Shown here piece by piece: positions 42,501 through 64,000 of a DNA stretch of 64,000 nucleotides. The stretch is from Octopus vulgaris (Eukaryota). The notes below the pieces were generated by a model. It was not told where the DNA came from, searched no databases, and worked only from the letters and a program-made list of their open reading frames with translations. Positions within the stretch are counted from its first letter, which is position 1. The number at the start of each line of letters is the position of its first letter. The translations under genes and the position numbers were made by a program. Location: contig OX597815.1 of the NCBI GenBank assembly GCA_951406725.2, positions 106,082,001 to 106,146,000 of the forward strand, written 5' to 3'.

Positions 42501-45500
42501 TTGTACCTGAAGGCAAAGAGGGGAGATGATTGGTTGAAATGCTGTGAGTAGTGATGATGAGGAATGAAAGTAGTTGGGTGGGGGGCACCATTTCGAAAGG
42601 TATGGGATGTAATGTGTGTGATACTGCTTGAAGGTAAATACTGCAGTCACATAGCATCAAAGATAGGGGAGGAAGGAATGTTTGTCAGAGAGAGAGAAAG
42701 GAAGGAGAACAAGGCCTCACACACATACAAGCACATTCAAGTGGTTGTAGGATGATTTTTTTTGTTGTACTGGACAAGTCTTCATGAGCACAGCAAGCAG
42801 CTAGTGATATAGATTTGTACTGTGTATGTAAGTCATTGCTAATTGGTTGAATGGCCTGTGTCAAGTTACTGAAAACTGGGTCTTTGCATTCACTTATACC
42901 ACATTCCTGGCAGTTAACATCTGTGAATTCTCAATACCATTTTCTGTTTTCCAGAGTGAAATTATCAAAGCTTCAAATGAAGTATCTAGAACATTTGATC
43001 TACTTATTTGTTTACAGAATAAATCATATATTAATTTTGGCATTGTTGCTTTGCAGAATTTTTGGAAAATATTGAAAATATGATTTTAATTCCAGGAATT
43101 GCAACAACAAAATCTAATATTTGCGCCTGTAAATACCAGTTGGTGTAAGGTTATGGCAAGGTATGCTGAAATGAAGAATTTCTTACAGGTAATTTCTGCC
43201 TATTGCATCATCATTATCATCACCATCATCATTATCAACATCACCACTGCAATCATTCCCATCATCATCATCACAATTAAGATTGTTGTGGTATTAATGA
43301 GTATGATATTGATTGTGAGTATAGTTGTGGTAAAGTTTTGAGGATAATTCTTGTTGGTCAGTTTCAACAGAGGTATCCAGTATTACAAGCCCCCTGACTG
43401 GATATTTTAACTGGTACCCTTACACTTTCTCTGTATGTGAGAGAGAAAGTTTTCCTGGTGAGTTGGTATAAGGGGAATCAGCTGTTACATAAGCATGTTG
43501 AATTACTTTACAGAAACTATTTGCATGGCTTGATGATAAATAATATTTATATTTTTATGGAAAAATTTTCCAAAATCAAACAACACAAAAGATAAAACAT
43601 TTCAATGAAACATTTTGACAGATTTTAGTGTGACATGTTTTCAGATTCTGGCATCTAAAGTCTCTTCTAAAATATATTGACTTTCCAGTCTGATCAAAAT
43701 TAAATTCAAAACAATCTTTCTTTTCTTTTTAAGGCCTGCTGTGGAGAAATGCAACTTAAATCTGTGCTGCTACATATACAGGAAGATCTAGAATCTTGCT
43801 CTAGATCACTTGGAAACTACTTAGAAAAGAAAAGAATGCAATTTCCCCGTTTCTTCTTTCTATCAAACCCAGTTCTCTTAGCAACGCTAAGTTGTCCGCA
43901 ATCTTTGGAATCGATATTGCCTATTTTGGGGTAATTATTGTTATATTTCCATACCATTAATCTTTGATACCATTTATTATTTATTTTACAGCTGACAATT
44001 CATAGCTAAGTTGTAGGAGTCAGGTAGTAAGCTTCAGTGCCCTGTGTTGACTATTAGAGGGAGATAATAAGTGTCCATTGTCAGTCATTCAGACGAATTT
44101 TAAATGAACAAATTTTTTGGGTCACATTGAGCAAAATTGATTGCTGTTGACTTATATCAGGAATGCCATCACTGGCTATTAAAACAAAAAGGAAGTGAGT
44201 ATTGCATATGCAGATTGTTAGGAGCAATATGGCTTGCAAAACACCTCATTGACACTCCCCATCCAGAGACAGGCATAGGTAAGATAGTTGGTATCAGTAA
44301 AGTCATTGTAGTGTGACCTTTAGTTTGTAGGAGTGTTAGAAGAGAGTAACAGAGATTAGAATTGGGGGTAGTTGTGAATGGTAAAGGGAAGGTAAAAGAA
44401 ATAACTCAGGAAGGAGGTAATGAGTGCTAGTACAAGACAAGTGGAGAGCCACTGTATAATAAATCTGTAGCTAGATTAGATGATGAGTTGAAAAGAGAGA
44501 GAGAGTTTTTTTTTTTAAGCATTCACTTGTTACAAGGTCCTTAGACCACTGAAAACATAAGAGCTACTGGAATAAAATGGATGCTAGACAGAAGTCCATA
44601 GGTGATGGTGAACGTTAGACTTAGAAGACTGGAGGTCATATTGAAGAGGAAAACAAGACGGTGGAAGGAAATTCCAAAGTTCAGAGATGGAGTTAAGAAG
44701 TACATAATGATGGCTACAGTGAGTTGGGGACAAAGGTAGTGGGGCATCAACAACTGATATGAGAGGTTACTCAAAGTGAGTTGATAGTTTTATTTTGTTA
44801 AAGATATCAAACTGTGAAAATAGCATGTGTGTCTGCTCCTTATCTGTTGCATCTCCCTGTTTATCATTTAATTTGACAAAAAACAAGCTATCTAGAAACA
44901 TCAGATTTAGATGTCCTGAGCATTTTGTTTGTTAATGTGATACTCCAAAACTCCAAAATGTCTTGCTTTTCTTCTCTCCAAGTATCTACATTTCTCCAGT
45001 TAAGTCTACATCTGCTTCTTCCCCTGCTTGTTTGATACCATCTACCATCTCATTTCCTTATCATTCATCTCTTTCTAATGCTCATTCACCTTGTCTGTCC
45101 ACTACACAACAAATTTCATTGTACCATACTACCTGTATAATCTGGGATGGCATTAAACCTGTCTAACCCCATCCTTCTCACATATCCATATTCAGTCTCC
45201 ACATACTATCATTCTTACCATTCCACCTCTCTCATCCACTATGGAATCTATGTATAAAGGATTGCATTGAATCTCTTTGTACCCAATACATTCTTCCATC
45301 ACTTGATCTTTCCATTCTCCATTTCTCTCTCACTCTCTCTTTCTCTACTGCCCTCATCACTCTCTTTCTACTATCATACTCTCACTCCACCCAGTTGGCT
45401 TTTCTTTTATCTTCAGTCTCTCTTGTATTCACCATTTCAGTGTATGCTTTGAGTGGAAGAACACAACATAAAGCAGTGAGGACTCTTTAGTCTTGTGGGG

Positions 45501-48500
45501 TACAAGTCAACGTCACTAACCCTGGTGCCACTGAGTACACTCTGTAAAATAATTTGCAACACACAGTAAAGTGAACCTTATAGTTTGGTTGAGGACATAA
45601 CATCTTTAATACTAGTGCCATGATAAAATGTACCAAGTGCACTGTGTAAATTTGTGTCTTTTTTAGGAAGGGCATCCTGTCCTGGAAAGCAAGCCAAAAC
45701 TGCAAGGTGTTAGATGTGTAGGAAAGCAGTATCTTTGAATAAGAACTGACTCATATCATGATAACCTTTTCAACACATACCAGCATAGAAAACATGCATA
45801 AAATCATGATGTTATACAAACACACACATATAGATGCAAGTATGGCTGTATGGATAAGAAGTTTGCTTCACACCCATATGGATTTAGATCCAGTCCCACT
45901 GTGTAACACTTTGGGCAAGCGTCTTTTGCTATAGTCCCAGGCCAATTAGAACTATGTTATTGGATTTGGTAGATGGAAATCGAAAGAAGCTTATTGTGTG
46001 TGTGTTTAAATATGCATGAATTTCATAAAGGTTGTTTAACACACTGTTTCACTATCCACAATATAATATTGTATAAGACCAAATGTGCAGGCTTATCCTA
46101 CAAATATAACAATTATTAATGAAGTTGTGTTGTTGAAGATGGTAAAATATATTTTTTGATTCAGATCTTTATTTAGATATGTCCATGAAATAGAAACTGA
46201 AGTACTTGAAAAAAGAAGAGAAATTTTATCAGAATCTGCAGCTTCAGATATACAATTTGACCAAAATACAGAAATTTTTACAACTGTAAGAAAATATCAC
46301 CCTTTATCTTATTCGTGAAAGCATACTGTCTCCACATGTTCTAAGAGCTGAGTTAAAGGGTTAACAACAAGAAGAGCATCCAACTGTATTACTCTGCCTC
46401 AGGAAACTTACACAGAAAACTTGCCCAGCATGGGGATACTGGATATAAAATTATGATAGTATTTTAATAAGAACTTAATTATATAATTTAATTTAACTTG
46501 ACTACATATTCTAAAATTTAAATTTTTAAATTTATACATTTCATAATGTAGCTAAGTTTTATTCTTTACATGTATAAACTGATGTCTTTTTCACTCACCA
46601 AAAATTCAATATTCAGACATCTTTCATTGCCCAGTTCCTCAGTATGACCTGTGACATTATAAATGCCTATGTGTGTGTGTATAGTCAAATCAAATAATTG
46701 AGCATTAAAAATAACAATAACAAAACAACAAGAGGACCTGTACATGGAATGTATTAATTCAATGCTTGGTAAAACGAGAGGGCGTTTGACATTTTGAGCA
46801 TGGCTCTTAGTCAGAAAGGAAAAGAGTTGGACAGTTTGACAGGAATTGACAAAGCCAAGGGCTGCACCAGGTTCCATAGTCTGTTTTTGCTTTGTACTAG
46901 GTGCTTTTATATCATCATCACCATCATTTAGCATCCATTGTCTATGCTGGCATGAATTGGATGGTTTGACTAGGGCTGGTGAACTGAGGGGCTGCACCAG
47001 ACTCCAGTCTGATTTGACATGGTTTCTATGACTGAATGTCTTTCCTAATGCCAACCACTTTGAGAGTATAATGGGTGCTTTTATGTGCCACCAGCACAGG
47101 TGCCAGTCACGTGGCACCAGTATCTGCCATGACTACAATTTCACTTGGCTTGATGGGACTTCTTCACAAACACAGCATATTACCAAAGGCCTTGGTCATT
47201 TGTCATTGCCTCCTTAGACCCAGTGCTCGGAAGGTGCTTTTTACGTCACCTGCATTGGCCACTTTGCCTCTTTGAGGCCCAATGCTCAGAAGGTGCTTTT
47301 CATATGCCACTGGCATGAGTGCCAGTTATGTGACACTAACAATGGCCACAACTGTGATTTCACTTGGTTTGATGGGTCTTTTCCAACATGGCATATAGAC
47401 AAAGGTCTCAGTCACTAGTCATTGCCTCCATGAGACCCAACATTCAAAGATCATGCTTCACTACCTTGTCCCATGTCTTCCTGGGTCTCCCTCTTCCACA
47501 GCTTCCTTCTACATATATTAATTATCATTTTGATATTCACTGTTTCATACTTGCATGAGTTGGACAGGATTTATTGAAGCAGCTCTTCTACAGCCTACTG
47601 CTCTTCTTATCACCAACTCTCACTTGTTTCCATGCAAGGTAATATTTCCTCATGACTAAACAAGTTTATGCAGTATGACTCTGCTTGTATCACAGTGACA
47701 CCTATTTATAATTATCACTAGATGTCACGACAAAGATGGACACACACACACATACACATCTGTATACTGACTTCTTTCAGTGTCCCTCAACCAAATTCAC
47801 TTACAAGGTTTTGGTTGGCCCAAGGTTATAGTAGAAAACACTTGTCTAAGGTCCATGCTATGAGACTGAACCTACAAACATGAGCTTTACTCATAAGTTT
47901 TACTTAATTCTTAATTTGCTCATAGGTCTTGTTGGTTATAAATTTAGTCTTTAGAATAATCATCATTCTCATTATTGCCAAATTATCAGAGTATTGGGAA
48001 AATACCTTGCAATATTTGCTCTAACTTTTTACTTTCCATTCTTTTGAGGTTGATAAAATATACCAGTCAAAGTATTTGTGGTCGATATAATTAGCTAATA
48101 TCCTCCTCCTTTTCCTGAAATTAGTCTTATGCCAAAGTTTGAAATCATTTTTTATTTTTTGAAGCCTGAATTAAGTCAAGAAATCAAACTGAGAGAAACT
48201 GCTGAAATACAAATGATAGCTGTAAAAAGTGTTGATGGGGAAAAATTATTATTAAATAAAAAGGTACTTATTTATATTTTTATATGTATACATACACACA
48301 CACACATACACACCACTCACACAGAAACACATATGCATACACACATGTATGTATGCATTTTTCATTGTTTAACTTTAACTGAACAGACTTGAGATCAAAG
48401 CATTCCATCCATGACTATCCTATCTTATTTTCAGGCAATGAATAGGTTATTCAGTGTGTATTCCCTTTTTTAAAATAAAGTTTGTTTGAGAACAATTTAT

Positions 48501-51500: not shown

Positions 51501-54500
51501 TTAATAAATAGATGAGGGGTAGATAGAGCTCCTTTGTTTACCCAAGCCATGGTGAAGGCAGTCTATCTAGGAGAAAGTAACTCTGAATTCAAATACTTCA
51601 CTGCTGTAGTTAGCCTTTGTTTGGGCAAAGACTGGGAGAAAGACACTCTGATATAAAACCTGCAACTGCAAATGCACCCAATGATGTTAACTTGCTTTCT
51701 TTTTGGGGATCATGCTTTGTAGTTTAGAGAGTGGGAATGGTTGCTGTGCAAAACTTTTCCTCACTTTAAAAAGTGTCAAGCACAGGTATTGCTGGAGAGG
51801 AAAAGAAATGGACATCTTGTATGTACATGGCTGGCCGAAGCTTAGAAAGCCACATCTAAACAATGAAAGTTTATATTGATAGTGAATCAAATGGCAAAAA
51901 GGGCTCTGGAACATTTTGTTCTGTGGTCTGGCCCAGCAGGTGTCCTAGGGCACTACAGCCTGGATCTGGTCCAGTAAATTCGAGTAAATTCAGCTGTGAG
52001 TAAATTCAAGTTAAGATGCAAGCCTATGAATATAAGATGTTGGAATGTTCGAATGTTATTAGACAATGATTGTCTGAAATCTTGTCCAATGAGAAGATCC
52101 ACACTTGTTGCAAAAGAATTAAGCAATAGGATATGAATGTTGTAGCGTTAGCCAAAACAAGAATTCATGGAAAGGGGAATTTCATAGAGAAATTTGCTTG
52201 GTATCATTTATTTTGGAGCGGTAGAGAGGAGACCTATAAAGGAGAATCAGGAGTGGGATTTGCTATCAAAACCACTCTGGCTTCAAAACTTGAGGAACTA
52301 CCATGTGGTCATTCGGATCATTTAATGTCTTTAAGACTTCCATTAAGAAATGGTTGCTATGCAACACTCATAAGTGCATATGCTCCAACTTTGAATTCAT
52401 CAGAGGATGATAAACTTGCCTTCTATCTATCATTGCAGAGATTATACGCCATATCCCCCATGATGACAAAGTTGTCATTTTGGGTGATTTCAATGCTCGC
52501 ATTGGTAGATTGGGAGACCTAGGAAAGCATGGGGTTGGGAGTTCCAACAGTAATGGTTTGCTACTGTTACAAATGTGCATAGAGATGGAATTGTGTGTCA
52601 TGAATACAATGTTTCAACTAATGAATAAGTATAAAACAACATGGATGTACCCTGGTTCTAAGAAATGGCATCTTATAGATTACATCCTCACCAGGAAACG
52701 AGATACTATGGACTTTGTTGTTGTAAGAGTGATGCATGGTGCAGAGTGCTGGACTGATCATTGGCTTTTGCGTGCCAAGGTGAATTTTGTTGTCAAGCCT
52801 AAGGTTAGAGCAAATAATGACAAATTACCTAAACGGATTGATGTCAATAAACTGAAGATTCTGTCAGTATGCAGTGAGTTTGTGAGTGAGATAAATAAGT
52901 TGTCCTGTGATGGAAGCTGGAAGTCATTCAAAGAAAGAGTGTACAAGATTTGTAATAACATTCTTGGCTTTGTTGTAAAAAAACACCAAGATTGGTTTGA
53001 TGATAAAGATGAAGAAGTTAATCTTATCTTAGAGGAAAAGCGAAAAGCATTTAACATATTGCAAAATGTTGACATGTCAACAAACAGAACAGGGGCTACA
53101 TATTTCAAGGCAGTAAAAGCAACAGTGCAGAGGAAACTACGAATGATTCCGGAAAATTAGTGGAGTGATAGATGTGATGAAATCCAAGAAGCTTCAAATG
53201 TTAACAATTCCAAACTTTTTTACTCTCTCTTGAAAAAAGTTTATTGACCAGTTTCATCAAAGGTTTTGCCACTTCGGAGCAAGGATGGCACAGAATTATT
53301 AACCAATCCTAAAGATATTGTTGTGAGATGGAAAGAACATTTTGATGAGTTGCTCAATAGATCCACTGAAGTTGATCTCTCTTTTTATGATAATATACCC
53401 AAGAGACCAATAAAACATCTTATAGCAGAAGTTCCAAACCTGGCTGAAATAAAAGCAGCAATCAGAAATTTGAACAATGGAAAGGCCCCTGGTATGGATG
53501 GACTTGGTGCAGAGATATATAAATACAGTGGTGATCATCTTTGTGTAATGTTGATGGATGTGATTCAGATGGTTTGGCAAAGTGAAGAGGTTCTCCGGAT
53601 TGGCGTGATGCAACTATGGAGGTACTATATAATCTAAAGATGGAAAGGATGTCTGTGATAATTATCGTGGAATCTGTCTGTTAGCTGTTGCTGGAAAGGT
53701 CCTCTGTAGGGTAATGTTGGATAGATTGCTTCTGCACATTGCTGATGATGTTCTACCAGAATCGCAATATGGGTTTAGGGATAGTAGGAGTATTATGGAT
53801 ATGATATTTTTGGCTAGACAGTTGCAAGAGAAGTGCATCGAACAGGATATGGACTTATACCAGGTTTTCATTGACCTAACAAAAGCGTTTGATTATATCA
53901 ACAGAATAGCACTTTGGGAGATCCTGAAAAAGCTAGGATGCCTTGAAAAATTTGTGAGAATGCTTAGACAATTTCATGACAAGATGGAAGTGAGAGTTAA
54001 TGTTGGAGGTACCTTATCAGATCCAATTTCGTAGAAAATGGTGTAAAGCAAGGTGATATTCCTGCTCGTACACTTTTTGCTATATATTTGCAATAGTCTT
54101 TCAAATAGCTTTTGAAGATTGCCCTGAAGGGGTCAATAAGATATAGGACAACAGGGAAACTGTTCAATCTCAAAAGACTCTATCAGTAATATATACCGAG
54201 CCATATGTTTATCTGTCTATTTATCCATATATTTGTCTATCTTTGTCTAAATATTTTCTGTGTATAGGTTCCTGTATGCCATAGCGTGGAATGGTGGCTT
54301 AATGAATTGAAGCATACTATTCATGATACAATTGGTAAGATGAGTCTTAATGCCATCCAAGAAATTACTCAAGCTACAAATCTTGAAGAATTCATTGCTA
54401 AGGTAAATGGTTTTAAATAGGTGTGTGTGTGTGTGTGTATAGTAACATAGTAGTTTGAAACCTTGCTACTGAGATAAATATGAGCACTAAATGTATATAC

Positions 54501-57500
54501 TACTTTCTGTGAGTGCAGATTGTTCGTACTTGTGTCATATACAAGAGGCAGCGTCTATGCTGTTTGCACCACTCATACAATATGCATAGACTGAACCTTG
54601 AGAGGAGATGACAAAGAACCAAGGAGCTTAGTGATATGCTATACTTGAGATGACCACAGATCACAACATATATGAGCTTCTAAAAGCATTGTGCATATGC
54701 ACACGACTATGTCCATGCCTAATTTGTCCCTATCAAGCCTTCGCCACCATCTCACCCCACTTTAACTTATCCCTCCATCACTTTTCTAATCTACTGAGTT
54801 ATTTTGTTGTTGCAATTGAATGAAAGTTGAACATGTTTCATCCTCTTTCTGTGATACCAGTTAACTCTTTCTTTGCCTAGAACCACTTCCTTGTGGCATT
54901 CATCCCTCATTCATATCATCTTTCCCATCTCTTAGTTTCCACCGATCACCCTTCTTTTCTGTGCAACCAGTTATCTCTCCCTGTCCCTGAATGACAGCCT
55001 GTTGACACTCATACCTCATTCTTTATGTCGTCTTATATCTACCATTAGCCACCATCTCTCACCTTTCTTCACCATTCTGTTTATCCCTATCACTATCCAT
55101 CTCTCATTCCCTCTTCCCTCTCTCTCTCCCCCCACACTTTTGTTGCTTTTATCAAATCCTCCACTTCCGTCATCTCCTTGTCTAACATCCTTATTCAATC
55201 TATAATTATTTTATTATTCTGCTGCTCTTCATCCTCAACTACCACCTTTGTTTACCATTCACTACATTCATTCCTACCTTCATCTTTCACTCTCATCTGA
55301 CATTCATGCAAACTTTACCCACTCTGAAATAATGCATTACAATTAGCCTCTCTACTATAGTCCCTCTCAGTCAAAGGGATTTTTAGTCTTGTAAGTTACA
55401 TGACATCCTCACTATTGTTGGTGCCATGTAAGAAATACTCAGTATGCTTTATAATGTATTGGCATTAAGAAAAGCAGCCAGCTGTAGAAAGTGTACCAAA
55501 GTAGACATTGGTGCTCAATACAGTCCTCTGATTCCTCAGATCTTGTTGAATTGTTTAACCCTTGCCTGCATAAAAGACAGACATTAAATGAAGATGATAT
55601 ATATGTGTGTATATATATATATGAATTTTTTTATTACTACAGTATCCAACTCAAATATGTCAACTTGGTGTCCTATATTTATGGTCCAGAGAAGTAGAGA
55701 AAGGAATTATGGAAGTGAAGCATGAACGCAAAGCTTTGTTTAACACCTACAAAAAGTTTTGTACCACTTATAGCAAGATCTTGACATTGTTCAGTCGTTC
55801 CTTTTCAAAAAGTTCTTGTGACACCAAATCTACACATATACGAATCAGATATGAAAAGATTGTAACAGTAAGTAAAAGATATTTATGAGGGTTTGCTGAA
55901 AAGTTCTTGGCTCATATTTAGCTGAAAATGATACAATTTTACATTCTGTATTCACTTTGAAAGTCAAGAGTCATTACAGTCAACTGTATCCTTCCACCAA
56001 ATTTGTGGCTGAGCCTCAGTTTTAGAAATTTTCCTTTTAATATGCATTGCCATTGTCATTCAGGGAGCAGATAAAGTATAGTACTGGAATCAATTTCATC
56101 GGTTGTTTCTACCTGCCAAAATTGTGACCTTGTGCATTATCTAGAAGTCCTCAGTATTATTTAAGGGAGAGACCCAGGAATACATGGGACAATGCAGTGA
56201 GACAGTACCTTCAGACTTTGGGCCTCACAAAGGAGATGACAAGGGACTGAGACTGCTGGCTGTTTGCTGTGTATGAGAATACATGTCAAGCTACATGGTC
56301 ATACATACAGGCGTACTCTTTATGTCCCTCTCTCAACTGAGAGGTCCTAGTTTTTGGGAGCTTGTGGGTGCTGATGCTATGTAAAAGCACTCATGCTGGT
56401 GCCATGTAAAAGCACTCATGACAGTACCATGTAAAAGCACCTGTGTTAGTGCCACATAAAAGCACTTTGTACACTCTGTAGAGTAGTTGGCATTAGGAAA
56501 GGCATCCAGCCATAGAAACCATGCCAAAACAGACAAAATATGCCAGTATAAAGAACGACACTTTATGATGATGTTTGAGTATCAGAAGAATACTTTGTAA
56601 CTCTCATTCTAGCTTTTTATGTTGTGAGTTTAAATCCCATTAAGACTAACTTTGCTTTACATCCCTTCAGGATCAATAAAATATAGTAGCAGTCAAGTAT
56701 ATGACTAACCCCTATTCCTTAAAATTGCTGACCTTGTGTAAATTGGATACAATTGTTGCTATCATTGCTGTTCTTTTACTTTGCCAAGACTCGCTTCATA
56801 TTACTCATCTGATTACACACTGAGCGGGATTTTTTGCTTGAACTGCATTTATAGCAAGTAGGTATTTATTACTGATAGTTTTTTTCTCTTCATTTGAGGA
56901 GAAAAAACAAGAATTTAATTCACCAATTTTTTATTCACTGTCTGGCATTTCAAACATAGTGACAAAAACGGTATTTCCAGAACTTCAACAAAAAAGAAAA
57001 ACAAGTCATAAACACGATAACATAAATATTTGATCTTTACATAATAAGCAGGAAGAAGTGAGGTTTTCACTGGAAAGCACAACTCATATCATGCCAAACA
57101 CAAACAGTATATTACAAAATCTAGCAGAAAAATAGCAACAAAAATTTCTTAGCAAGGAAATTTTGAATATGTGGTAACTTGTGAAATAAAGGATGATATG
57201 ACACAAAATATGTGACCGAATCAAATACTTCCTAACTTGTGTCAGTTATCCAGAAGTGAGGGAGGAGGAGAGTAAGCAATTTCTGTTTCAAAAATGCAGG
57301 AAATTTTTCATTTGCTCTCAAAGAATCTTTTAAAGAAGGTCCAAGTCAGTATATGTTGTTTCTATCACCTGTGTATTGGAGTATCTACTTGGTTTTCAAG
57401 ACTGAAGGTGAGATGAAGCAAAAAACAAAGTAGTGTGAAACACACCTGCCCCAAGACTCAGATCACAATACATTGGCCAGTGCATGCAAGAGTAACAGTC

Positions 57501-60500
57501 AGGTTCATCAACCCTTAGCTCATTGCCACCTTTGTGGTACAATATGAGCAGATAGTAAGGGCAAAGGTAATATAGAGTGACATGAAGAATCAGTATGATC
57601 TTATAAATGCTAATAACCCCTCAAAACTCAGGGCCTTCAAGTATTGTGCCCCATTGTGAGTGCAGTAACAAAAGCAGTAAGATTAGCAACACAGAGCAGA
57701 AAGCTCAGTTGTTAAATATGCAGCAGTTAGAACCTGAGAAAGTAGAAAAGTAGTCGAACCAGCTACAACAACCCCAGACCCTATGTTGTTGTTTTCACAG
57801 AATCCCCAGTCCAAACTTAGGAAATAGTGGAGATCACCTTGTTTTAGTTCCAAAAAGTTGAAGAGAAAAAAACCCTTCTACCAATAGATCATCTCAATTA
57901 CTTGCATTGATGGGAAGCAGATGTAGACTGGAGACAAATGGCAGACTTACAGCAGAGAAAAAGAAAAAAAGAGAAGGCTAAGGAGTGAAATCAAAAGGTG
58001 TATAAAATATGAAACTGTTGCGCTGTTATGTTTTTTATCTAAATGGAATACATCCAGTTGCAAATCAGAAAATTTCAGTTTCAATGACTTGAAATACAGT
58101 ATATTGGAATCTACAAAAATTTAGTACTAATATACTTAGTGCAGTGAACCAAGAAATGTTCATTAATAAAAGTTACACTCTTAGCAAGAAGAATGAATCA
58201 TTAGCTAAATTATTAATTTTGGTCAGGAAAAACAAAGGACAAAATACGGAAATTCTAATAAAACTGCTACAAGGGTAAAGGAGAAGCTCCAGGAAGCAAC
58301 TAAGTATCAAACTTATGGCCCAAATTATGAAATTATAAAGAAAATTAGCAGAGATGAAACGCAGTTTGGGTTTGTGTGAGGCTAGGGTACAACTGACATC
58401 TTTCTAGTGGTGATGATAAGGAGGAATCTGTCTTCTAACCAAAAGATCAACAGTTCACATTGCTACAGCATCAATGAGTTTTGTCTTATGCAAAAACATT
58501 TAACACTTAATTATTCAATGTACATATATATTAATAAGTGGCATGATGGAATGAAGTTCACTGCTGTACACAAGCTGGAACTCTTTATGATTGATTTTTT
58601 TTTTTTTTTTTTCTTTTTTTGCTTCCCATACTAATTTTGAATTCCTCCCTGGGAGGAAACCTGGGCTAGGCTAACATTTTATCCAGGTATTGAAACAACA
58701 GAAGTGGTTAAAAATATATACTGAACACTATAGCCCCAAAATATGGAATCATCACCATTAGCTTACATGAAATCTTCAGCTACCTTTGATTTTTCAAGGA
58801 ATCTAAACCAAAACTTTATTTTTTTTTTATATATGGACTTTGAATATTGTTTTCTAAATTTCTGATAGTACATTATCATTTACTACAAATATACTTGTGG
58901 AACAATATCAGTGTATTATAAATACCATCTCAAGAACTACCACCAACACCACTGGTTTATAGCTACAGTCTGTTAAATCCATTAATAATATTTTCAAAAA
59001 TTAAAACACTAAAATTACTTTATTTTCTACCTATATTGTCTTCTACTTGGTTCTACTTAATTTACTTCTTATCTACTTTTACATCTTACCTACTTTACCC
59101 TGTACCTTCCTGAACTTCAGCCTATACTACCTTGTTCTTTCAGCAAACTCTCTATCTTCGAGATACTCTTTATACAATATGTAGGAAAAAGGTAAAACAT
59201 TGCACAGACTTTGACTGGAGACGATACCTCAAGTGTTACTTGGTATCAGACAATGGTAAGTATGCCATTGTATTTGCAATAGGGTGATATGAATGTAAGT
59301 GTTCAGAATTTAGAAAAGACGAAGAATGAGGAGAAGGCTCAGAAAGAGAGCAAAAGAAAATGAGAAATTAAACTAGAGAGAGAGAGGAAAAGAGAAAGGC
59401 TAACAACAAAATCCACACTACTATGGAGATGGAGAGTGCATGAAGAGGAGAGAGTGAGAGAGAGAGGACAAGAGTAGTTCCACACAAGATTCACCATGAT
59501 CCTCTAGTATCTCATCTGAGTCCCAGCATGCTGAGACCTGATGTCACTATTTCATCCCATATCTTCCTTTGTCTTCCACTTCCACAGCTAATCCTCACAC
59601 AACAGTTTATCACCCAAAACACATCCTTCATACTCCTTACATGTCCTCACAGTACAGTCACCATCTCCTATATACATCAGATGATGTCTTTAATGTGCAA
59701 TTCACTTACATTCTGGAGGCTAATTAACAATACATTCCCCGTAGATCATGTTTACCTCATTTCTGTCCAGTCATTGTGCATGCTTTCTCTTCAATGTTCC
59801 TGTTTCACTACCATATAGTATCATACATTTAACTACAATGCAAAATTGATGCTGTCAACATTCCACCTAAACAGTTGCAACAACGCAGCTGGAAGTGGGA
59901 AAACCTAGGGAATTCCTGAGAGTTGACATTCTGAGGGAAAATGACTGAGAATAGTGGTTAGTGAGGAGCTTGAGGAGTAAAGGACATAACATAAGTGATA
60001 ATAGTTGTAGTAGGGATGATGAAAGGAGCACAACAGAACAAGGAAAAGGAAATAGAAGTGCAATTAGGTCTTACCTGACCGGGGATGAAGTCGGATGGCC
60101 TTCAGCCAACTTGCTAACGTCTTGTCGTCTTCGTGTCTTCCTGGGGTCTGTCCCAACTCGTCGATGCCGCACGTGCGTTCTGTCTGTCACTTCCGCTTCC
60201 GCCAGTGCATGCGCCCTGCCAGACCTGCAAGCCCACTTCCGCTCCCCCCCCATTCTGTCACACTCCTTCATCATCACACCACACGCCCCCCCTGATCTAT
60301 AGATCACTGAACCGGCTTCCTCACTCGCTCCCGCACCTGAAACTGGTTTCATAATCAGCCAACCAGGGAGGAGGGTGCCGCTCCCTCTTTGGTCGCAGCG
60401 CGACCCTAGGACTTGTTTCTGGTGTGTTGCTGTCGACCTCGTCATCCTGTCGGTTGTTTTCGTCTTGCCCACTGTTGCTTGTCCCATCCTCTGGGGCATG

Positions 60501-63500
60501 GACAATCCTCCGTATGTCCAAACGTGGCGTGGCATACCATTGATCGAGATGTTATTCTTTGAATTTATGGAGGTTATTGTCCCCTTTCCCCATTGCGATG
60601 TACACCGTGCGTTTGGGGGTTTTACCCAGACTTCCTCCCCGACCTGCACGAAGGCGTGCTCTTCCTCTGCCCCGGGTCGCATTGATGTAGTACACGGATG
60701 CCTCCACTCGTACCTGAATATTGCCCTGTGTGGCACCGATTCCTCAGCCTGTCCGGATCGGGGAGACAAGTTGTACCAAAAAACTGCTTCAAGCGGCGAA
60801 ATGTGCCCTCTTTCCGCTATGGCCTTGACTGTCCGATGGTGCCTCTCCACGATCCCGTTACCGCCCGGCCTATACGCTGCTCTGAACAAGCGTCGCACGT
60901 TCCACCGATCAAGCATAACCCTCAATGCTTCCGAACGAAACGCCGCCCCGTTGTCCATCAGTAGTTCTTCCACGGGACCTCTCTCTAAAAATATCCCGTT
61001 CAGGATCTGCACGATCTCGTCAGCAATGCCCGATCTCAACTCGCTCCAAATGGCCAGCCGGCCTGGCCCACAGTCGACCATGGAGAGGTACATTCGCTGA
61101 CGGTAGTGTGTCACATCCACAGCTAGCCTTTTCCAGTTCTGCTCCACGGAAAGGCTTCCCTGTTCATGCCCACACGGAGCAAGGTCGATGGACTGACACC
61201 TGTCGCAGCTCCCGACCTGCTTCCGGACGCTTCTCCTGGTCATGTCAGCATCAATCTTTTTTGCCAGATACAGGGTCCTTTCCACACCCAGGTGATGCAT
61301 AGCGTGCAGTTTCTTCAGTTCAGAGTCATCCAACCGACACGCCGCAGCTATCCCTTTCCGAGCCTCCTCCGGTTCTTCCAACCACGCCCTTTTCACCCTG
61401 GTCAGTACGTCCGCCTTGTTTTTCTCCGAAGGCACGAAGACCACGTTCAGCTTCAGTCCGAATTCGGCGATCAATTCACCTAGAACTCCTAGACGGCGCT
61501 TCACTAACATCTCCGCAGCACCTTTCGTCCGCACTCTCCTGTCACCGGTGATCACCGATCCTACCCAGCCAAGCACAGTGGCCTCCGTCCGCATTTCAAT
61601 CGTGCGCAGCCCCCATTTCAAGGCCAAGTTCACCCCTTTCAGCAGTGCGTCTAATTCGGCGACATTGATGTGGTTGAAATCATCTGCTTTCCGAAGCCAG
61701 GCCGCGTCCTCCACCGCAGTGCCTTCGATTGCCAACACCACCCCTATCGCTATACTGCTAGCATCACACCAGACGGTCCCGCATTTCGTCCTGGGCATGT
61801 ACCAGTTCCCCCTGACCGGGTCTTCCGCTCTTGTCCTCTCTAGGATCTCCTGCATCATTGCCACCGTCCCTTCTCCCACCTTGTCGCCCCACCTCTCTCC
61901 TTCCGCTCGTCTCTTGGTGTAACTACACGCCGTGCGCAGCCATCCAGTGATCGGGTAGTGACCGACCAACTTCCCACACACCGAGAACAGCTCTCTCCTG
62001 CTGACGCTGGAACTCAGCTCTGGGATTTCATTTCCTCTCCGGAACACCAATTCACCAGATCTATCTCTTCGCAGCTTCAGCCCCAGCACGGCTCCCCCTT
62101 CAATCGACTCCGGTGGCTTAGCAATCAGTCCGAACTTCTCCAGATGTCTCACTACCTCGTCGGCTGGCACTACAGTTTCGTCCACCAAAATGTCGTCAAT
62201 GTAGGAGCTGGTGGCCTTTCTAATCTTGCCGTCTTTCCCTAGGACGGACCTAAGCACTGCCGCCACGATCTTCGGAGTGGAATTTCAGCCCGAAACCCAG
62301 CCTGGTTAGACAGTACGTCTGGCCCTTGTACCGCACCAGCTGATATCGCCATAGTTTGTCGCTCACATGGAGCTGCAAGTATGCCGATCTCAAGTCGACA
62401 ATCGTCGCTGCCTCAGTCGACTGTCTCCACTTACGTAATGCCTCACCACAAACGTCTGTCGCCTCACCTCACCAGTCGTTGTAGGTGAATCCCTACATCA
62501 TCGGGGAACCCATTCACGAACGCCAGTCGGGCTGCTCTCTCCAGTCCTTCTCCGGCAAACCCGGCCAGAGTCGCTAGCCTTCTAGCTTCCGATGCAAAAT
62601 CATCCACCTGGCCTCCCGTCCACCTGATTGCACCCAGCTTAGCGAAAGCTGTGTACTCGCATTCCGTGTATGCGTCACACAAGCGCCGCTCTATATTCTC
62701 ATCGCAGAGCCGTTCTTCTTCATCCATCTCTAGGTAAAGCGACAACGCACTCCCTTCCAAATACAGCACCATAAGACTCGCCACGTCGCTTATGCCCTGC
62801 AGTCTCGCCACCAGCCTGATTTTCTGAATCCAGGCCACTACATCGCCTTCGCCGTTAAAAGGTCTGACGACGTCACTGGCAATCCTAATTTTTGCAGACA
62901 TCGTGTTGAAAAAAAATGTGAACGCTGACGAACTGCCGAAATAGCTTGTAGTAGGGATGATGAAAGGAGCACAACAGAACAAGGAAAAGGAAATAGAAGT
63001 GCAATTAGGTCCTACCTGACCGGGGATGAAGTCGGATGGCCTTCAGCCAACTTGCTAACGTCTTGTCGTCTTCGTGTCTTCCTGGGGTCTGTCCCAACTC
63101 GTCGATGCCGCACGTGCGTTCTGTCTGTCACTTCCGCTTCTGCCGGCGCATGCGCCCTGCCAGACCTGCAAGCCCACTTCCGCTCCCCCCCATTCCGTCA
63201 CACTCCTTCATCAACACACCACAATAGTAGAAGAGACAAGTGTTTAGGTGGAGATGGCACTCGACCAACCAATTCTGAAGAGCAGAAACCATTATTGCAG
63301 TGATACAAAAACAAAGAGGAGTTAGTGTGTCTATATGCCAGTCAGTCAAATATCCTAAATTTGGATGTGATTTAGAATGTCTGTATGTATATCAGCACCA
63401 CTGCTCCAGATGCAGTACTTCATGTGAGTCTTATTTGAACTTTGTAGAGGGTTAGCAGTTGTTAGTGGTTGAGACAAAGAGAACCAACCCTTGAGATGCT

Positions 63501-63970
63501 GTAATAAGGGATGATCTAGTGTCACATAACTGAGCCTCTATGTAGTCATTCAATCTGTTAGAAATAGTTGTAACATTTCCCTCAACTTACACCACTGGAT
63601 ATACAAAAAGATAGGATGGCCATAACTGGAACATCTATGTCAAACTGCTGGACCAGGTTTACATTGGGGTAGGGGGTTAAACAACAAAATATCCATAGCA
63701 TTCAATGCCAATGAGTGCAATCTGTCGTTTACAAATAATGAAATCTTACATTGTATCTTTATATTCTTATCAGACACAGAACTGAAGCTTCATTTTGAAA
63801 TCCTTGATCATCATCTTGTCTATGGCAATGAGTTTTGTGGAAGCAACCCAAGCATTATCATGACTCCTGTTACAGAAAAATGTTTTTTATCAATATTCCT
63901 GGCCCTTCAGAATCTACAGCCAGTCTATCTCGTTGGAACACCTGATGTTGGAAAGAAGGAAACTATTAAG
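1118..63970 (+). CDS. Axonemal dynein heavy chain-like gene, partial (25 exons in window; tail DHC_N1, linker DHC_N2, start of AAA1); both ends lie outside the window
   Basis: 25 AG/GT-bounded exons join in frame without stops. Dynein motifs: ENPPMPRNSPKVAGTIQW, FQPGLSSLSWNSLNI, GPNIPDSSPEETVERL, IRNRHW, WIDVQKLWIHLEAVF, YLEKKRMQFPRFFFLS, YGNEFCG, TPVTEKC. The tail resembles outer-arm gamma-type (DNAH5/8-like) chains, but the orthologue cannot be assigned without a tree. Confidence 0.92.
1420..2200 (-). mobile_element. RTE-derived 3' fragment with (GAT)n tail and internal purine-rich expansion
   Basis: catcatc...ccatgctgtcatgagttgggtggtttgac tail shared with the copies at 4108, 6209 and 20732; GA-rich tract, then the RTE segment agcacagc...cttgtcatt. 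Confidence 0.6.
3435..3739 (+). CDS. Dynein heavy chain-like exon 2 (ENPPMPRNSPKVAGTIQW...NIDP)
   Basis: DHC_N1 motif; gagaag acceptor (alternative start 3432); AG/gtatgg donor, phase 2. Confidence 0.9.
4108..5335 (-). mobile_element. 5'-truncated, decayed RTE-clade LINE (RT C-terminus plus 3' UTR)
   Basis: Minus-strand LEVADSFHYL...ARIKIAWAKFRELL...LRVKGRLYD, homologous to the 20.7-24.1 kb copy; (GAT)n tail. Confidence 0.85.
5635..5894 (+). CDS. Dynein heavy chain-like exon 3 (LLIAIEETKSM...SWNSLNI)
   Basis: gacag acceptor, G/gtatgc donor; PGLSSLSWNSLNI ends DHC_N1. Confidence 0.9.
6209..6487 (-). mobile_element. RTE 3'-end derived short repeat
   Basis: Same (CAT)n tail and ccatgctggcatgggttgg core as other copies. 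Confidence 0.7.
6645..6799 (+). CDS. Dynein heavy chain-like exon 4 (AFLCTIRS...TLKHQ)
   Basis: polypyrimidine tract plus tcag acceptor, gtaagt donor, phases match neighbours. Confidence 0.85.
7143..7405 (-). mobile_element. SINE fragment (tRNA-derived family, head missing)
   Basis: Minus strand ttgtgttcttgagcaagatactttatttcacgttgctccagttcactcagctg, a conserved SINE central domain also seen near 25290. Confidence 0.6.
7484..8345 (-). mobile_element. Tc1-family DNA transposon fragment (3' part, IR/DR-type end)
   Basis: TA-CAGTGGGGGGAAATAAATATTTG terminus with an inner repeat near 7660; minus-strand transposase WENVLWTDESKIELFG, GGNIMVWGC, NPRENLW. Confidence 0.88.
9017..9142 (+). CDS. Dynein heavy chain-like exon 5 (HYEDIQKT...VTATR)
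   Basis: tttcag acceptor, gtaagt donor, 42 open codons. Confidence 0.8.
11424..11529 (+). CDS. Dynein heavy chain-like exon 6 (ISPKYGSK...SKKII)
   Basis: cacag acceptor, G/gtaagt donor; needed to bridge phase 0 to phase 1. Confidence 0.75.
12820..13691. mobile_element. Non-autonomous mariner derivative with fold-back structure (two 5' ends)
   Basis: TA-flanked inverted ends of about 190 bp; + strand mariner transposase remnants (ISYGSVQSIITEDLGM..SAKFVPKLL); minus strand N-terminus EQRICIKFCQKLG. Confidence 0.8.
14198..14345 (-). mobile_element. SINE 3' fragment
   Basis: Reverse complement gcatggtcgcagtcaaatgactgaaacaagtaaaagaataaaag matches the tail of the 24.7 kb SINE. Confidence 0.55.
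16238..16430 (+). CDS. Dynein heavy chain-like exon 7 (YYREKLYHAVEKIILRSL...YETYL)
   Basis: long pyrimidine tract plus cccag acceptor, gtaagt donor, phase 1 to 2. Confidence 0.8.
16492..16702 (+). mobile_element. tRNA-derived SINE
   Basis: A-box-like agctggcagaattggtagc, B-box-like gttcaaattcc, core also seen near 48040, 56620 and (reversed) 40630. Confidence 0.65.
16740..17830 (-). mobile_element. Heavily decayed non-LTR retrotransposon RT remnant (RTE-like)
   Basis: Broken minus-strand RT-like peptides (AKAAF, VFTYSCVTW, L ADSTVL); many stops. Confidence 0.5.
19227..19339 (+). CDS. Dynein heavy chain-like exon 8 (INSVLVYNIPDFALNP...DISK)
   Basis: tttcag acceptor, G/gtcagc donor, IPxxxLxP tail motif, phase 2 to 1. 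Confidence 0.8.
20258..20359 (+). CDS. Dynein heavy chain-like exon 9 (IPLIDIF...EKSLS)
   Basis: tttcag acceptor, G/gtaaga donor, phase 1 to 1. Confidence 0.78.
20732..24110 (-). mobile_element. Decayed RTE-clade LINE (APE endonuclease plus RT, 3' UTR tandem array, (GAT)n tail)
   Basis: Minus ORFs: IISAYAPQ and VAGDFSGHVG (EN); KGDALDTNNYRGIKLL, QFGFVSGKSTTDA, GVHQGSVFSP, LLYADDL (RT). Confidence 0.93.
20898..21225. repeat. About five diverged tandem units of about 66 bp in the RTE 3' UTR
   Basis: Repeating gtgctttt(t)atgtgccacc...gccagtc...ctggcaacga(c/t)cacactc. Confidence 0.8.
24691..24915 (+). mobile_element. tRNA-derived SINE, near full length
   Basis: A box TGGCCTAGTGG, B-box-like GGTTTCCATTC, body, tail ggcggtgccccagcatggcc...gctgaaac followed by an A-rich end. 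Confidence 0.8.
25940..26556 (-). mobile_element. RTE LINE endonuclease-region fragment
   Basis: Minus strand IFVAGDFNGHVG, KTLPGEECISQHRLVISDF. Confidence 0.8.
26560..26837 (+). mobile_element. RTE 3'-end derived repeat with (GAT)n tail
   Basis: ttggcgttaggaagggcatccagccgtagaaac...ccatgctagcatggaaaacggacgctaaacgatgatgat. Confidence 0.75.
26917..27209 (+). CDS. Dynein heavy chain-like exon 10 (NENIARTYVQSFNRYDFLW...HTDAY)
   Basis: ctacag acceptor, gtaaga donor, 97 open codons with YDFLW and SWKTVFA dynein-tail motifs. Confidence 0.88.
27798..27880. repeat. (TAA)n microsatellite, left flank of the Dong-like element
   Basis: Direct reading. Confidence 0.95.
28012..28917. repeat. Tandem duplication of about 455 bp (28012-28461 and 28469-28917)
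   Basis: Both units start gttaagaaa(a)tttacaaatttacatatct and end aatacagaaca(g/t)cccttc, with high identity. Confidence 0.9.
29514..33186 (+). pseudogene. Dong/R4 ORF with three lesions (frameshift near 30420-30450, TGA at 30640, TAA at 32326)
   Basis: Myb-like KWTREE...; RT NYRPITCL, DYKKAFDS, GIFQGDSLSP, HLFYMDDLK; zinc knuckle CRFC...HLISGC; RLE KPDIVV...D...K..KY. Confidence 0.92.
33381..33451. repeat. (TAA)n/(TGA) microsatellite, right flank of the Dong-like element
   Basis: Direct reading. Confidence 0.9.
33533..33708 (+). CDS. Dynein heavy chain-like exon 11 (NMLKAACIY...PIELAYHKL)
   Basis: ctcag acceptor, gtaagt donor; PIExAY motif. Confidence 0.85.
34628..34784 (+). CDS. Dynein heavy chain-like exon 12 (KYCVPLPRSE...HRENM)
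   Basis: tgaag acceptor, gtaagt donor, phase 2 to 0. Confidence 0.82.
35156..36256 (-). mobile_element. Tc1-family transposon, decayed, 5' TIR missing
   Basis: Terminus taggggttagacaaaatgatggaaacacc in a TA run; transposase ORF 35593..36225 (DLSDFQKGQVV, GRKPKLS, WKNVIFSDKSSF) and downstream PDLNIIEHLW-like remnant. Confidence 0.88.
36257..36332. repeat. Perfect 76-bp palindrome with no spacer
   Basis: 38-bp arms pair exactly around ggta|tacc. Confidence 0.95.
36577..36789 (+). CDS. Dynein heavy chain-like exon 13 (AFVVKVIQFRNSFDGEGP...QTEE)
   Basis: tttcag acceptor, gtaaaa donor, GP...P.E...RL motif. Confidence 0.88.
38234..38347 (+). CDS. Dynein heavy chain-like exon 14 (DLKMVYSLY...TLWSDVDF...)
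   Basis: tgtag acceptor, gtaagt donor; start of DHC_N2. Confidence 0.88.
39149..39280 (+). CDS. Dynein heavy chain-like exon 15 (VELFWDDY...LLHSK)
   Basis: taaag acceptor, AAG/gtaata donor, 44 codons. Confidence 0.86.
39410..40020 (-). mobile_element. Decayed RTE RT fragment
   Basis: Similar in sequence to 22650-23300 (NCYK-K-G...NYRGI-KL region). Confidence 0.55.
40118..40227 (+). CDS. Dynein heavy chain-like exon 16 (TIRNRHWLQIM...NLP)
   Basis: ttgtag acceptor, AG/gtaaca donor; conserved RHW motif; not in the ORF track in this frame. Confidence 0.88.
41064..41424 (+). CDS. Dynein heavy chain-like exon 17 (YKSTVVEIC...WIDVQKLWIHLEAVF...ANK)
   Basis: ttcag acceptor, AAG/gtaata donor; core DHC_N2 motifs. 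Confidence 0.93.
41738..42800 (-). mobile_element. RTE 3'-derived repeat with long purine-rich internal expansion
   Basis: (CAT)n tail and ggatgcccttcctaacaccaaccac core, about 800 bp GA-rich tract, then caagtcttcatgagcacagc RTE segment. Confidence 0.6.
43096..43188 (+). CDS. Dynein heavy chain-like exon 18 (ELQQQNLIF...NFLQ)
   Basis: tccag acceptor, CAG/gtaatt donor. Confidence 0.85.
43734..43930 (+). CDS. Dynein heavy chain-like exon 19 (ACCGEMQL...YLEKKRMQFPRFFFLS...)
   Basis: tttaag acceptor, gtaatt donor; YLExKRxxFPRF signature. Confidence 0.93.
46165..46285 (+). CDS. Dynein heavy chain-like exon 20 (SLFRYVHEIE...EIFTT)
   Basis: ttcag acceptor, gtaaga donor, phase 2 to 0. Confidence 0.78.
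46910..47510 (-). mobile_element. RTE 3'-end fragment with internal duplication
   Basis: (CAT)n tail; two copies of the gtgcttt...gccac...ttcacttgg...gtcattgcctcc unit. Confidence 0.7.
48165..48263 (+). CDS. Dynein heavy chain-like exon 21 (PELSQEIK...KSVDGEKLLLNKK)
   Basis: tttgaag acceptor, AAG/gtactt donor; SxxGE motif. Confidence 0.82.
48518..48584. repeat. (TG)n microsatellite
   Basis: Direct reading. Confidence 0.95.
49856..51125 (+). mobile_element. Possible non-autonomous Helitron/Helentron-like element with internal duplication
   Basis: Starts ACTAGCAGAGATAACCTGGCATTGCTTG (ACTAG plus subterminal hairpin-like motif); blocks 50189-50420 and 50641-50832 are duplicated; ends in TG/TATG microsatellite. 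Confidence 0.35.
51140..54180 (+). mobile_element. RTE-clade LINE, decayed and 3'-truncated (5' UTR, APE endonuclease, partial RT)
   Basis: CWNVR, GVGFAIK, LISAYAPT, GDFNAR, WHLIDYIL, NYRGICLL, PESQYGFR, FIDLTKAFD, NGVKQG. Confidence 0.9.
54268..54402 (+). CDS. Dynein heavy chain-like exon 22 (VPVCHSVEWWLNEL...FIAK)
   Basis: tatag acceptor, AAG/gtaaat donor; VExWL motif. Confidence 0.88.
55643..55867 (+). CDS. Dynein heavy chain-like exon 23 (YPTQICQLGVLYLW...EKIVT)
   Basis: tacag acceptor, gtaagt donor; PxQ...W motif. Confidence 0.88.
56165..56575 (+). mobile_element. RTE 3'-end fragment with four 25-bp tandem units
   Basis: ggagagacccaggaatacatggg end of RT; repeated ccatgtaaaagcact; gatgatg tail. 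Confidence 0.65.
59144..59255 (+). CDS. Dynein heavy chain-like exon 24 (QTLYLRDT...DFDWRRYLKCY...)
   Basis: ttcag acceptor, G/gtaagt donor; RD...FxW motif preceding AAA1. Confidence 0.88.
60006..60283 (-). repeat. 3' LTR (278 bp)
   Basis: About 6 substitutions and 1 indel against the 5' LTR; preceded on the minus strand by a polypurine tract. Confidence 0.95.
60284..60294 (-). other. Polypurine tract
   Basis: Minus strand CAGGGGGGGCG immediately before the TG of the 3' LTR. Confidence 0.85.
60321..62460 (-). pseudogene. Gypsy pol remnant: RT (N-terminus deleted), RNase H, integrase
   Basis: IVDLRSAYLQ...LTRLGFGL, frameshift near 62283, SYIDDI; RNase H WCDAS...HINVAEL; integrase HHCC (HAMHH...CDRC), DVTH/MDNG/GIVE; second frameshift near 60521. 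Confidence 0.92.
62464..62901 (-). pseudogene. Gypsy gag N-terminal part, truncated by the internal deletion
   Basis: MSAKIRIASDVVRPFNGEGDVVAW...YLEGSAL...AFVNGFP; joined directly to RT without zinc knuckle or protease. Confidence 0.85.
62935..62946 (-). other. Non-canonical primer-binding site complementary to nt 1-12 of tRNA-Phe(GAA)
   Basis: Minus strand AGCTATTTCGGC directly follows the CA of the 5' LTR; + strand GCCGAAATAGCT equals the 5' end of metazoan tRNA-Phe. Confidence 0.75.
62947..63223 (-). repeat. 5' LTR (277 bp)
   Basis: TG...CA termini; near-identical to 60006-60283. Confidence 0.95.
63774..63970 (+). CDS. Dynein heavy chain-like exon 25, start of AAA1 (YGNEFCG...TPVTEKC...GTPDVGKKETIK)
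   Basis: tatcag acceptor, AAG/gtgatt donor; aligns to the YGxEYLG...TPLTDRC...GPAGTGKTETxK consensus. Confidence 0.9.
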
Positions 63971-64000
63971 GTGATTCTTCACATGATTTCAAGTGTAATT

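Follow-up and report, generated by a model that had tools for sequence, protein, structure and literature searches.

We analysed a 64,000-nucleotide stretch of the Octopus vulgaris genome (assembly GCA_951406725.2, contig OX597815.1, positions 106,082,001 to 106,146,000, forward strand), hereafter the window, which carries on its plus strand the middle of a gene for a dynein heavy chain. From its tail and motor sequences, the gene is almost certainly the Octopus orthologue of DNAHX (reference XP_041462850, Lytechinus variegatus). The exon chain, assembled with orthologous proteins as guides and built against the Octopus sinensis protein, comprises 25 exons, 4,216 nt and 1,405 codons, with 0 stops and with GT-AG borders at every intron, exactly the codon and exon figures and canonical splice sites reported in the first-pass annotation. 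About 690 codons lie upstream of the window and about 2,930 downstream, for a total of about 5,020. The features are listed below; each exon comes from the exon chain, and any further evidence is given in brackets.

1118–63970, plus strand: portion of the predicted DNAHX (very probably class-12) heavy-chain gene, starting within DHC_N1 and reaching, via the linker, the AAA1 Walker A, with the gene running off both window ends; 25 exons, 1,405 codons
1118–1238, plus: exon 1 of the window, tail, DHC_N1 region
3435–3739, plus: exon 2, DHC_N1 (Pfam)
5635–5894, plus: exon 3, end of DHC_N1 (Pfam)
6645–6799, plus: exon 4
9017–9142, plus: exon 5
11424–11529, plus: exon 6
16238–16430, plus: exon 7
19227–19339, plus: exon 8
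20258–20359, plus: exon 9
26917–27209, plus: exon 10
33533–33708, plus: exon 11
34628–34784, plus: exon 12
36577–36789, plus: exon 13
38234–38347, plus: exon 14
39149–39280, plus: exon 15, DHC_N2 match below threshold (Pfam)
40118–40227, plus: exon 16
41064–41424, plus: exon 17, DHC_N2, linker (Pfam)
43096–43188, plus: exon 18
43734–43930, plus: exon 19, DHC_N2, contains LSNPVLLATL (Pfam)
46165–46285, plus: exon 20
48165–48263, plus: exon 21
54268–54402, plus: exon 22
55643–55867, plus: exon 23
59144–59255, plus: exon 24, contains LYLRD (3' end equal to the loose end of contig X19 at 29/30 letters)
63774–63970, plus: exon 25, start of AAA1 with a degenerate P-loop (Pfam, alignment, RNA-type contigs)
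63935–63958, plus: AAA1 Walker A GTPDVGKK, with the Thr-to-Val signature of DNAHX at position 5 (V2221 in sea urchin) and, at position 8, Lys in place of the Mg2+-binding Thr

The window model is identical to residues 692–2096 of O. sinensis XP_036354691.1 at 1403/1405 positions and to O. vulgaris CAI9717935.1 at 1360/1360 positions over the aligned blocks, with 95.7% identity to O. bimaculoides XP_052821622.1. Pfam scanning of 15 stretches gave five matches above the cut-off, and DHC_N1, DHC_N2 and the start of AAA_6 follow one another along the model. The DHC_N1 matches in exons 2 and 3 bear out the retained tail that had been described, and the motifs described as drifted, TPVTEKC, LYLRD (model residue 1305) and LSNPVLLATL (model residue 1086), are all located in the exon chain. 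The gene had also been called intact: it is open across the window, and beyond it intactness rests on orthologous protein records, with those of O. sinensis (5,025 residues) and O. bimaculoides (5,020 residues) being complete and including AAA5, AAA6 and the C-terminal domain. In the O. vulgaris annotation the gene is split over CAI9717935-7 (P0157, P0275 and P0276), with the C-terminal domain in separate records of 326 and 277 residues.

Exon 25, flanked by ag and gt, reads ...TPVTEKC...QPVYLVGTPDVGKKETIK, with Walker A codons ending in GGA AAG AAG, and matches positions 1–50 of the Pfam model AAA_6 with an E-value of 1.8e-7. Its GTPDVGKK aligns gap-free with the GPAGTGKT of solved dyneins, confirming the degenerate Walker A proposed at this place. 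Read contigs were checked over positions 63340–64000 in 4 of the 24 listed runs, three of which carry no tissue label and a guessed RNA type. The RNA-type contig X16 covers exactly 63773–63970 with one synonymous difference, and its flanks misfit the introns; in X19, also RNA-type, a loose end upstream of exon 25 corresponds to the end of exon 24, while X15 ends inside the P-loop. The DNA run X13 has five differences in exon 25, three of them synonymous, and keeps GKK; three synonymous changes on 43 sites and two non-synonymous on 152 are a weak measure, being five changes in all. GKK is present in 6/7 Octopus records examined, the seventh having no match to the motif. GKK is not an assembly error, because it recurs in a spliced contig of RNA type and in three protein records from Octopus; the canonical GPAGTGKT, which the first-pass annotation had named as the refuting case, was not encountered in the contigs checked. 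A rescue by RNA editing is rejected since an A-to-I edited AAG yields only K, E, R or G and never Thr, as had been argued. A canonical P-loop in an alternative exon within the window is rejected as well, no second AAA1-like exon being found in a six-frame reading of the 64 kb. A word-based search with exon 25 alone returned no match among proteins of 115–2,000 residues, a range uninformative for a protein of 5,000 residues.

DNAHX is a subfamily of non-motile heavy chains found by cryo-electron microscopy in sea-urchin sperm and described in a 2025 preprint by Chai, Loustaunau, Zheng, Yang and Zhang (PMC11785096). A search with exon 17 against 1.84 billion representatives returned an Argonauta protein first, followed by long amphibian, fish and sponge proteins. 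In a wider search, the top 41 rows all lacked the stalk model PF12777, which 77 of the next 79 rows possess, among the matches listed; the top 41 belong to nemerteans, an annelid, molluscs, a hemichordate, echinoderms, cnidarians, a tunicate, non-teleost fishes and amphibians. The Lytechinus record, P0317, is XP_041462850.1 and shows V2221, S2322, T2324 and K2393 as published (PMC11785096). We compared 49 proteins of this clade with 88 control dyneins, proteins having been assigned to the clade by their rank in the searches, ahead of any tree building. This table omits duplicate isoforms or models (P0314, P0325, P0156, P0278, P0043 and P0021) and the partial proteins P0012 of Latimeria, P0024 of Leptobrachium and P0134 of Intoshia. 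In BLAST with the window protein, 45 clade proteins stand above every control, with 869 bits for Lytechinus, 573 for the best control and 408 for DNAH8.

Both FastTree trees contained 57 rows, 24 of them from the 49 clade proteins. In the tree of the tail and linker, the window protein falls inside the 24-row DNAHX group (support 99), which adjoins the DNAH8-containing group (support 100); in the tree of AAA1–AAA4, the O. sinensis motor falls inside the same DNAHX group (support 99). The heavy-chain phylogeny suggested in the first-pass annotation, run here with DNAH8-type rows, thus places the window in DNAHX. Each of the ten 500-residue blocks of the O. sinensis protein scores higher against Lytechinus DNAHX than against DNAH8 (10/10, one L. 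variegatus dynein being compared), and a length of at least 5,000 residues is reached by 35/49 clade records versus 4/88 controls. Over AAA1–AAA4, Octopus is 24% identical to DNAH8 versus 31–35% to DNAHX proteins and 67% to Argonauta. The gene was held to be fast-evolving, and indeed, under a mixture model, the octopod branch carries about 2.4 changes per column versus 0.16–0.38 in other molluscs. Likewise, Argonauta and Haliotis share 32% identity for DNAHX versus 59% for DNAH3, and Haliotis and Mytilus 67% versus 82%.

The best matches among solved structures are the Chlamydomonas gamma chain and DNAH5, with no DNAHX chain among the best 60 of 83 PDB matches. No protein named DNHD1 occurs among the matches listed in the searches, which were run for DNAHX relatives and none of which was aimed at DNHD1. 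Two other assignments were rejected. The tail groups with DNAH8-type and not with DNAH11 rows in the tail tree, and so lacks the class-4-like tail (DNAH9/11/17) of class 13; a decay of DNAH5/8 specific to octopus does not fit an old subfamily that extends from sponge to amphibians. A choanoflagellate protein, Salpingoeca infusionum P0135, is placed in the DNAHX group by both trees at support 99, though its branch is long and calls for caution; its coiled-coil insertions are partial and its AAA4S insert is short, at 39 residues. The two trees agree in placing P0015 (4,481 residues, from a 19 kb contig) as the sister of the DNAHX group. This protein retains GPAGTGKS and the sensor II Arg in intact form, but its Walker B reads DN, its AAA4 P-loop is broken and its stalk match is weak. 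Tallied among the controls although it branches beside the clade, it is possibly an early relative in a half-decayed state, comparable to the orphans of Kollmar at the base of class 12. DNAHX-type proteins also appear to be kept in highly reduced animals, namely P0288 of Dimorphilus (5,326 residues) and P0134 of Intoshia linei (1,847 residues, a search match outside the trees), the latter without recognisable AAA1 P-loop glycines.

The insertions of DNAHX are found again in the Octopus records. The AAA4S segment has 76 residues in O. sinensis and 75 in Lytechinus versus 23 in DNAH8, 23 being the length in six canonical chains. The coiled-coil segments measure 187, 186 and 142 residues for CC1 and 122, 126 and 103 for CC2, in the same order. 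In the microtubule-binding domain (MTBD), the pre-H3 segment has 50, 80 and 36 residues, a small excess in Octopus, and H5 has 80, 88 and 49, respectively. When compared with those of Lytechinus and Lottia, the O. sinensis AAA4S insert beats all 100 shuffles, which it does not against DNAH8 or DNAH3; by this measure it is homologous to the two former. PF12777 is absent from the Octopus and Argonauta records, and the stalk and MTBD elements are recognisable in the alignment but interrupted by insertions.

AAA1 is eroded throughout the clade. Motif positions were read off the Dictyostelium row of the alignment, and the roles given to them are those generally known for dyneins, matched in part by the DNAHX preprint. 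The Walker A K-[ST] pair, taken to be near-invariant as K-T in the first-pass annotation, is present in 88/88 controls and in 45/49 clade proteins; GKK occurs only in three Octopus species (3/49), Argonauta having GKT and the choanoflagellate GKY. Val at position 5 of Walker A marks 27/49 clade proteins and 0/88 controls, and is variable, O. bimaculoides having Ala and Argonauta Thr. Walker B DE is kept in 23/48 clade proteins versus 86/88 controls, sensor I NPGY in 0/41 ungapped clade rows versus 81/88, sensor II Arg in 1/49 versus 88/88, the AAA2 arginine finger in 28/49 versus 88/88, and the AAA4 P-loop in 0/49 versus 87/87. Within the clade, the P-loops of AAA2 (48/48) and AAA3 (47/48) are kept. 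Some chains with canonical names also show AAA1 drift (P0332, P0339 and P0378), namely GPTATGKT or GPAATGKT in frog DNAH8, and Walker B DD with an altered sensor I in fish DNAH1.

The checks of Walker B, the AAA2–4 P-loops, the stalk and the MTBD that had been suggested were run on the orthologues. Octopus has lost the Thr of Walker A, the two acidic residues of Walker B (DE to AD), the sensor I Asn, the sensor II Arg, the AAA2 arginine finger (R to K) and the AAA4 P-loop, with the AAA2 and AAA3 P-loops intact; in O. sinensis, sensor I reads TAAFSE and sensor II SFTLSS, in exons past the window. Out of seven AAA1 catalytic positions, 85/88 controls keep all and no clade member does: Octopus keeps one, the Walker A Lys, Argonauta and most amphibians three, frogs and sturgeons three to four, and Lytechinus, limpets and Pomacea six. 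Octopus DNAHX therefore has, on this count, the most eroded AAA1 among the members sampled. The Ser/Thr of Walker A binds Mg2+ and forms a strictly conserved catalytic pair with the Walker B Asp, replacement of either abolishing activity (PMC9599734); Octopus is without both members of this Mg2+/proton-relay pair. We predict with high confidence that AAA1 is non-hydrolytic, and it probably binds Mg-ATP poorly, in agreement with the catalytic impairment that had been proposed. GKK is not the cause of the non-motility of the family, because 45/49 clade proteins, Argonauta included, keep K-[ST]. The most likely reading of GKK is drift: with the AAA1 site already dead its residues change freely, and the octopod branch is a fast one, for DNAHX in particular.

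Taken together, the data are best explained, we believe with good confidence, by an Octopus DNAHX orthologue, an old offshoot of a DNAH5/8-type outer-arm heavy chain that is no longer a motor. From the chemistry of the P-loop, AAA1 would lack hydrolysis and the chain would therefore lack a powerstroke, while nucleotide binding at AAA2 and AAA3 probably persists in a structural role. By analogy with the sea-urchin protein, the ring may be held in the pre-powerstroke state by the AAA4S insert gripping the C-terminal cap, both of which are retained in the Octopus records; the stalk would fold back, with weak microtubule binding or none. Through its conserved tail, the chain could join an active axonemal heavy chain during flagellar assembly and serve as its auto-inhibited (phi-type) partner, a role in octopus that we consider plausible, if a little short of an even chance. 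DNAHX proteins have been proposed as scaffolds or brakes of the sperm tail, and we infer a structural or regulatory role in octopus from the sea-urchin work. The pre-powerstroke state was the only one in which sea-urchin DNAHX was observed, and its AAA1 traps ATP (PMC11785096). We tentatively suggest, as something less than probable, that Octopus AAA1 is the end point of the decay, empty or binding ATP free of metal, with the new Lys replacing Mg2+ and the lock being purely structural. Such a lock would be unlike that of the ATP-trapped sea-urchin protein, and the two causes proposed for locking could thereby be told apart.

Several observations weigh against the DNAHX interpretation and the role attached to it. 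Sycon, Salpingoeca and two partial clade proteins failed to outrank the controls in the BLAST list. The octopods lie outside Mollusca in both FastTree trees, which is read here as long-branch attraction of a fast orthologue; only the mixture model, with 15 clade rows, returns them to Mollusca (support 91, unstarred). The closest match, O. vulgaris model CAI9717935.1, stops before the C-terminal domain, and everything adduced on the motor domain beyond Walker A is taken from records of orthologues and not from the window. Lastly, the phi-template model is itself a proposal of the preprint, in which the partner chain is not identified (PMC11785096).

The same protein could have another job, as a resident structural part of the axoneme at outer-arm positions that, with a class-13 or other beta-type partner, damps or shapes the beat. 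Kollmar proposed a class-12/class-13 heterodimer at these positions because the two tails resemble those of classes 3 and 4 (PMC5100056), and the grouping of the Octopus tail with DNAH8-type chains would suit such a place. So would the fact that sea-urchin DNAHX was salt-extracted from mature sperm axonemes, with only 13% of particles in the phi form (PMC11785096). The partner in the preprint, however, has a canonical extended stalk, and mass spectrometry pointed to DNAH6 or DNAH7 (PMC11785096), and no class-13 protein came up in the searches made here; we regard residence in the axoneme as possible but rather doubtful.

That the Octopus copy is turning into a pseudogene, with GKK and the long branch reflecting the loss of all constraint, is improbable. 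The octopod branch is several-fold longer than those of other molluscs, the low Argonauta–Haliotis identity given above is in line with it, the depth of the RNA contigs is low (2.4–4.6) and the O. vulgaris model is split before the C-terminus; yet the 1,405 codons of the window are open, the two other Octopus species have full-length records through AAA5, AAA6 and the C-terminal domain, the AAA2 and AAA3 P-loops are kept, two-thirds of AAA1–AAA4 (67%) is identical in Argonauta, and the few exon-25 differences of X13, weak as they are, include more synonymous changes on fewer sites. A divergent but working DNAH5/DNAH8 outer-arm motor is what the public record names say ('dynein axonemal heavy chain 5' or '8-like'), and the solved-structure matches and intact AAA2 and AAA3 P-loops would allow it; it is very improbable, being already contradicted by the position outside the DNAH8 group in both trees and by the motifs, with one of seven AAA1 positions kept, stalk and MTBD insertions and a lower identity to DNAH8 than to DNAHX. 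Least credible of all is an artefactual GKK, whether through misassembly, an overlooked alternative exon that carries a canonical P-loop, or RNA editing that restores one: exon 25 lies 30 bases before the window end, with downstream alternatives out of view, it comes after a 3.2 kb long terminal repeat (LTR) element, and contigs lose rare variants, but the X16 contig, the X13 DNA, the six Octopus records, the six-frame reading and the reach of A-to-I editing all speak for GKK.

The introns contain several transposable elements. The LTR retroelement just upstream of exon 25 occupies 59955–63300 of intron 24 on the minus strand and looks recently inserted, its direct repeats at 60005–60250 and 62946–63191 being 98% identical. 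It has a GC content of 47–56% versus about 35% in the surroundings and a 737-codon frame with a DUF7047 match and a weak integrase core match, the coding region seeming short for a complete element. Intron 10 carries a non-LTR retroelement (29496–33186, plus strand) that matches RVT_1 and zf-RVT but is broken by a frame change and stops, with GAT/TAA microsatellites on either side; we take it to resemble the microsatellite-targeting R4/Dong-type elements. Decayed Tc1-like transposase (HTH_Tnp_Tc3_2) and fragments of long interspersed nuclear elements with reverse transcriptase or endonuclease matches lie at 35593–36240 (minus), 21758–24111 (minus) and 52130–54034 (plus).

The pseudo-ATPase reading of the first-pass annotation holds as far as AAA1 sequence goes, with a single catalytic position kept, but a protein of this kind has already been described as DNAHX (PMC11785096); pseudo-motor dyneins are thus not newly discovered here. 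What changes is the annotation, as the Octopus records named DNAH5- or DNAH8-like are DNAHX, and the very probable tie between the 'novel' DNAHX of 2025 and the class-12 dyneins of 2016. The clade also offers a natural gradient of AAA1 decay, from six of seven positions in sea urchin and limpets through three in Argonauta and most amphibians to one in Octopus, and therefore makes it testable whether an AAA1 nucleotide is needed for the pre-powerstroke ring. Among spiralians, the lowest AAA1 counts are found in internally fertilising lineages, taking the modes of fertilisation from general knowledge, and AAA1 erosion may be faster where fertilisation is internal. Pomacea, at 6/7, and the externally spawning frogs and sturgeons, at 3–4/7, run counter to a simple rule of this kind.

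When compared with sea-urchin DNAHX, the Octopus protein belongs to the same clade in the tail and motor trees, exceeds 5,000 residues in its orthologue records, and shares Val at position 5 of Walker A, the loss of NPGY and of the sensor II Arg, the AAA4S pre-sensor-II insert and the CC1, CC2, pre-H3 and H5 insertions. It differs in being about 250 residues shorter and several-fold faster evolving, and in having GKK, AD, Ala/Thr and Lys in place of the GKT, the Walker B DE, the sensor I Asn and the arginine finger of the sea-urchin protein. Octopus fertilises internally, as do the caecilian, salamanders and several snails with a DNAHX gene. This differs from the external fertilisation to which DNAHX is tied in the preprint, which also states that it is absent from protists (PMC11785096). 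Both statements are strained by the new members, a choanoflagellate and internal fertilisers; that octopods, caecilians, salamanders and snails retain DNAHX despite internal fertilisation would mean that its job is not tied to free spawning.

The class-12 dynein (DHC12) of Kollmar (2016) is holozoan, including a choanoflagellate and Lottia, and has a class-3-like tail and a stalk without a typical MTBD or coiled coil, its ATP sites being 'not analyzed in detail' (PMC5100056). Octopus resembles it in the class-3-like tail and the atypical stalk and MTBD, and the clade is holozoan in range; in contrast to the class-12 description, the MTBD and coiled coil of the Octopus clade are still recognisable, though broken by insertions. 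From these definitions, compared by description and not by sequence, DNAHX is very probably Kollmar's class-12 dynein. The preprint was the only relevant item found in the literature on DNAHX or dynein-X, and its main text is without the words 'class-12', 'octopus', 'cephalopod' and 'mollusc', although its figures may include such species (PMC11785096). The closest canonical relatives are DNAH5 and DNAH8 (class 3), with which Octopus shares the DHC_N1 and DHC_N2 tail, the sister position in the tail tree and the best PDB matches; they keep the AAA1 catalytic set, the AAA4 P-loop and a regular stalk, whereas Octopus has 1/7 AAA1 positions and the insertions. The human orphan heavy chain DNHD1 (class 11) likewise has a poorly conserved AAA1 (PMC11785096, PMC8754002), and has been proposed as a functional analogue of DNAHX, with a separate origin and insertions at different sites (PMC11785096).

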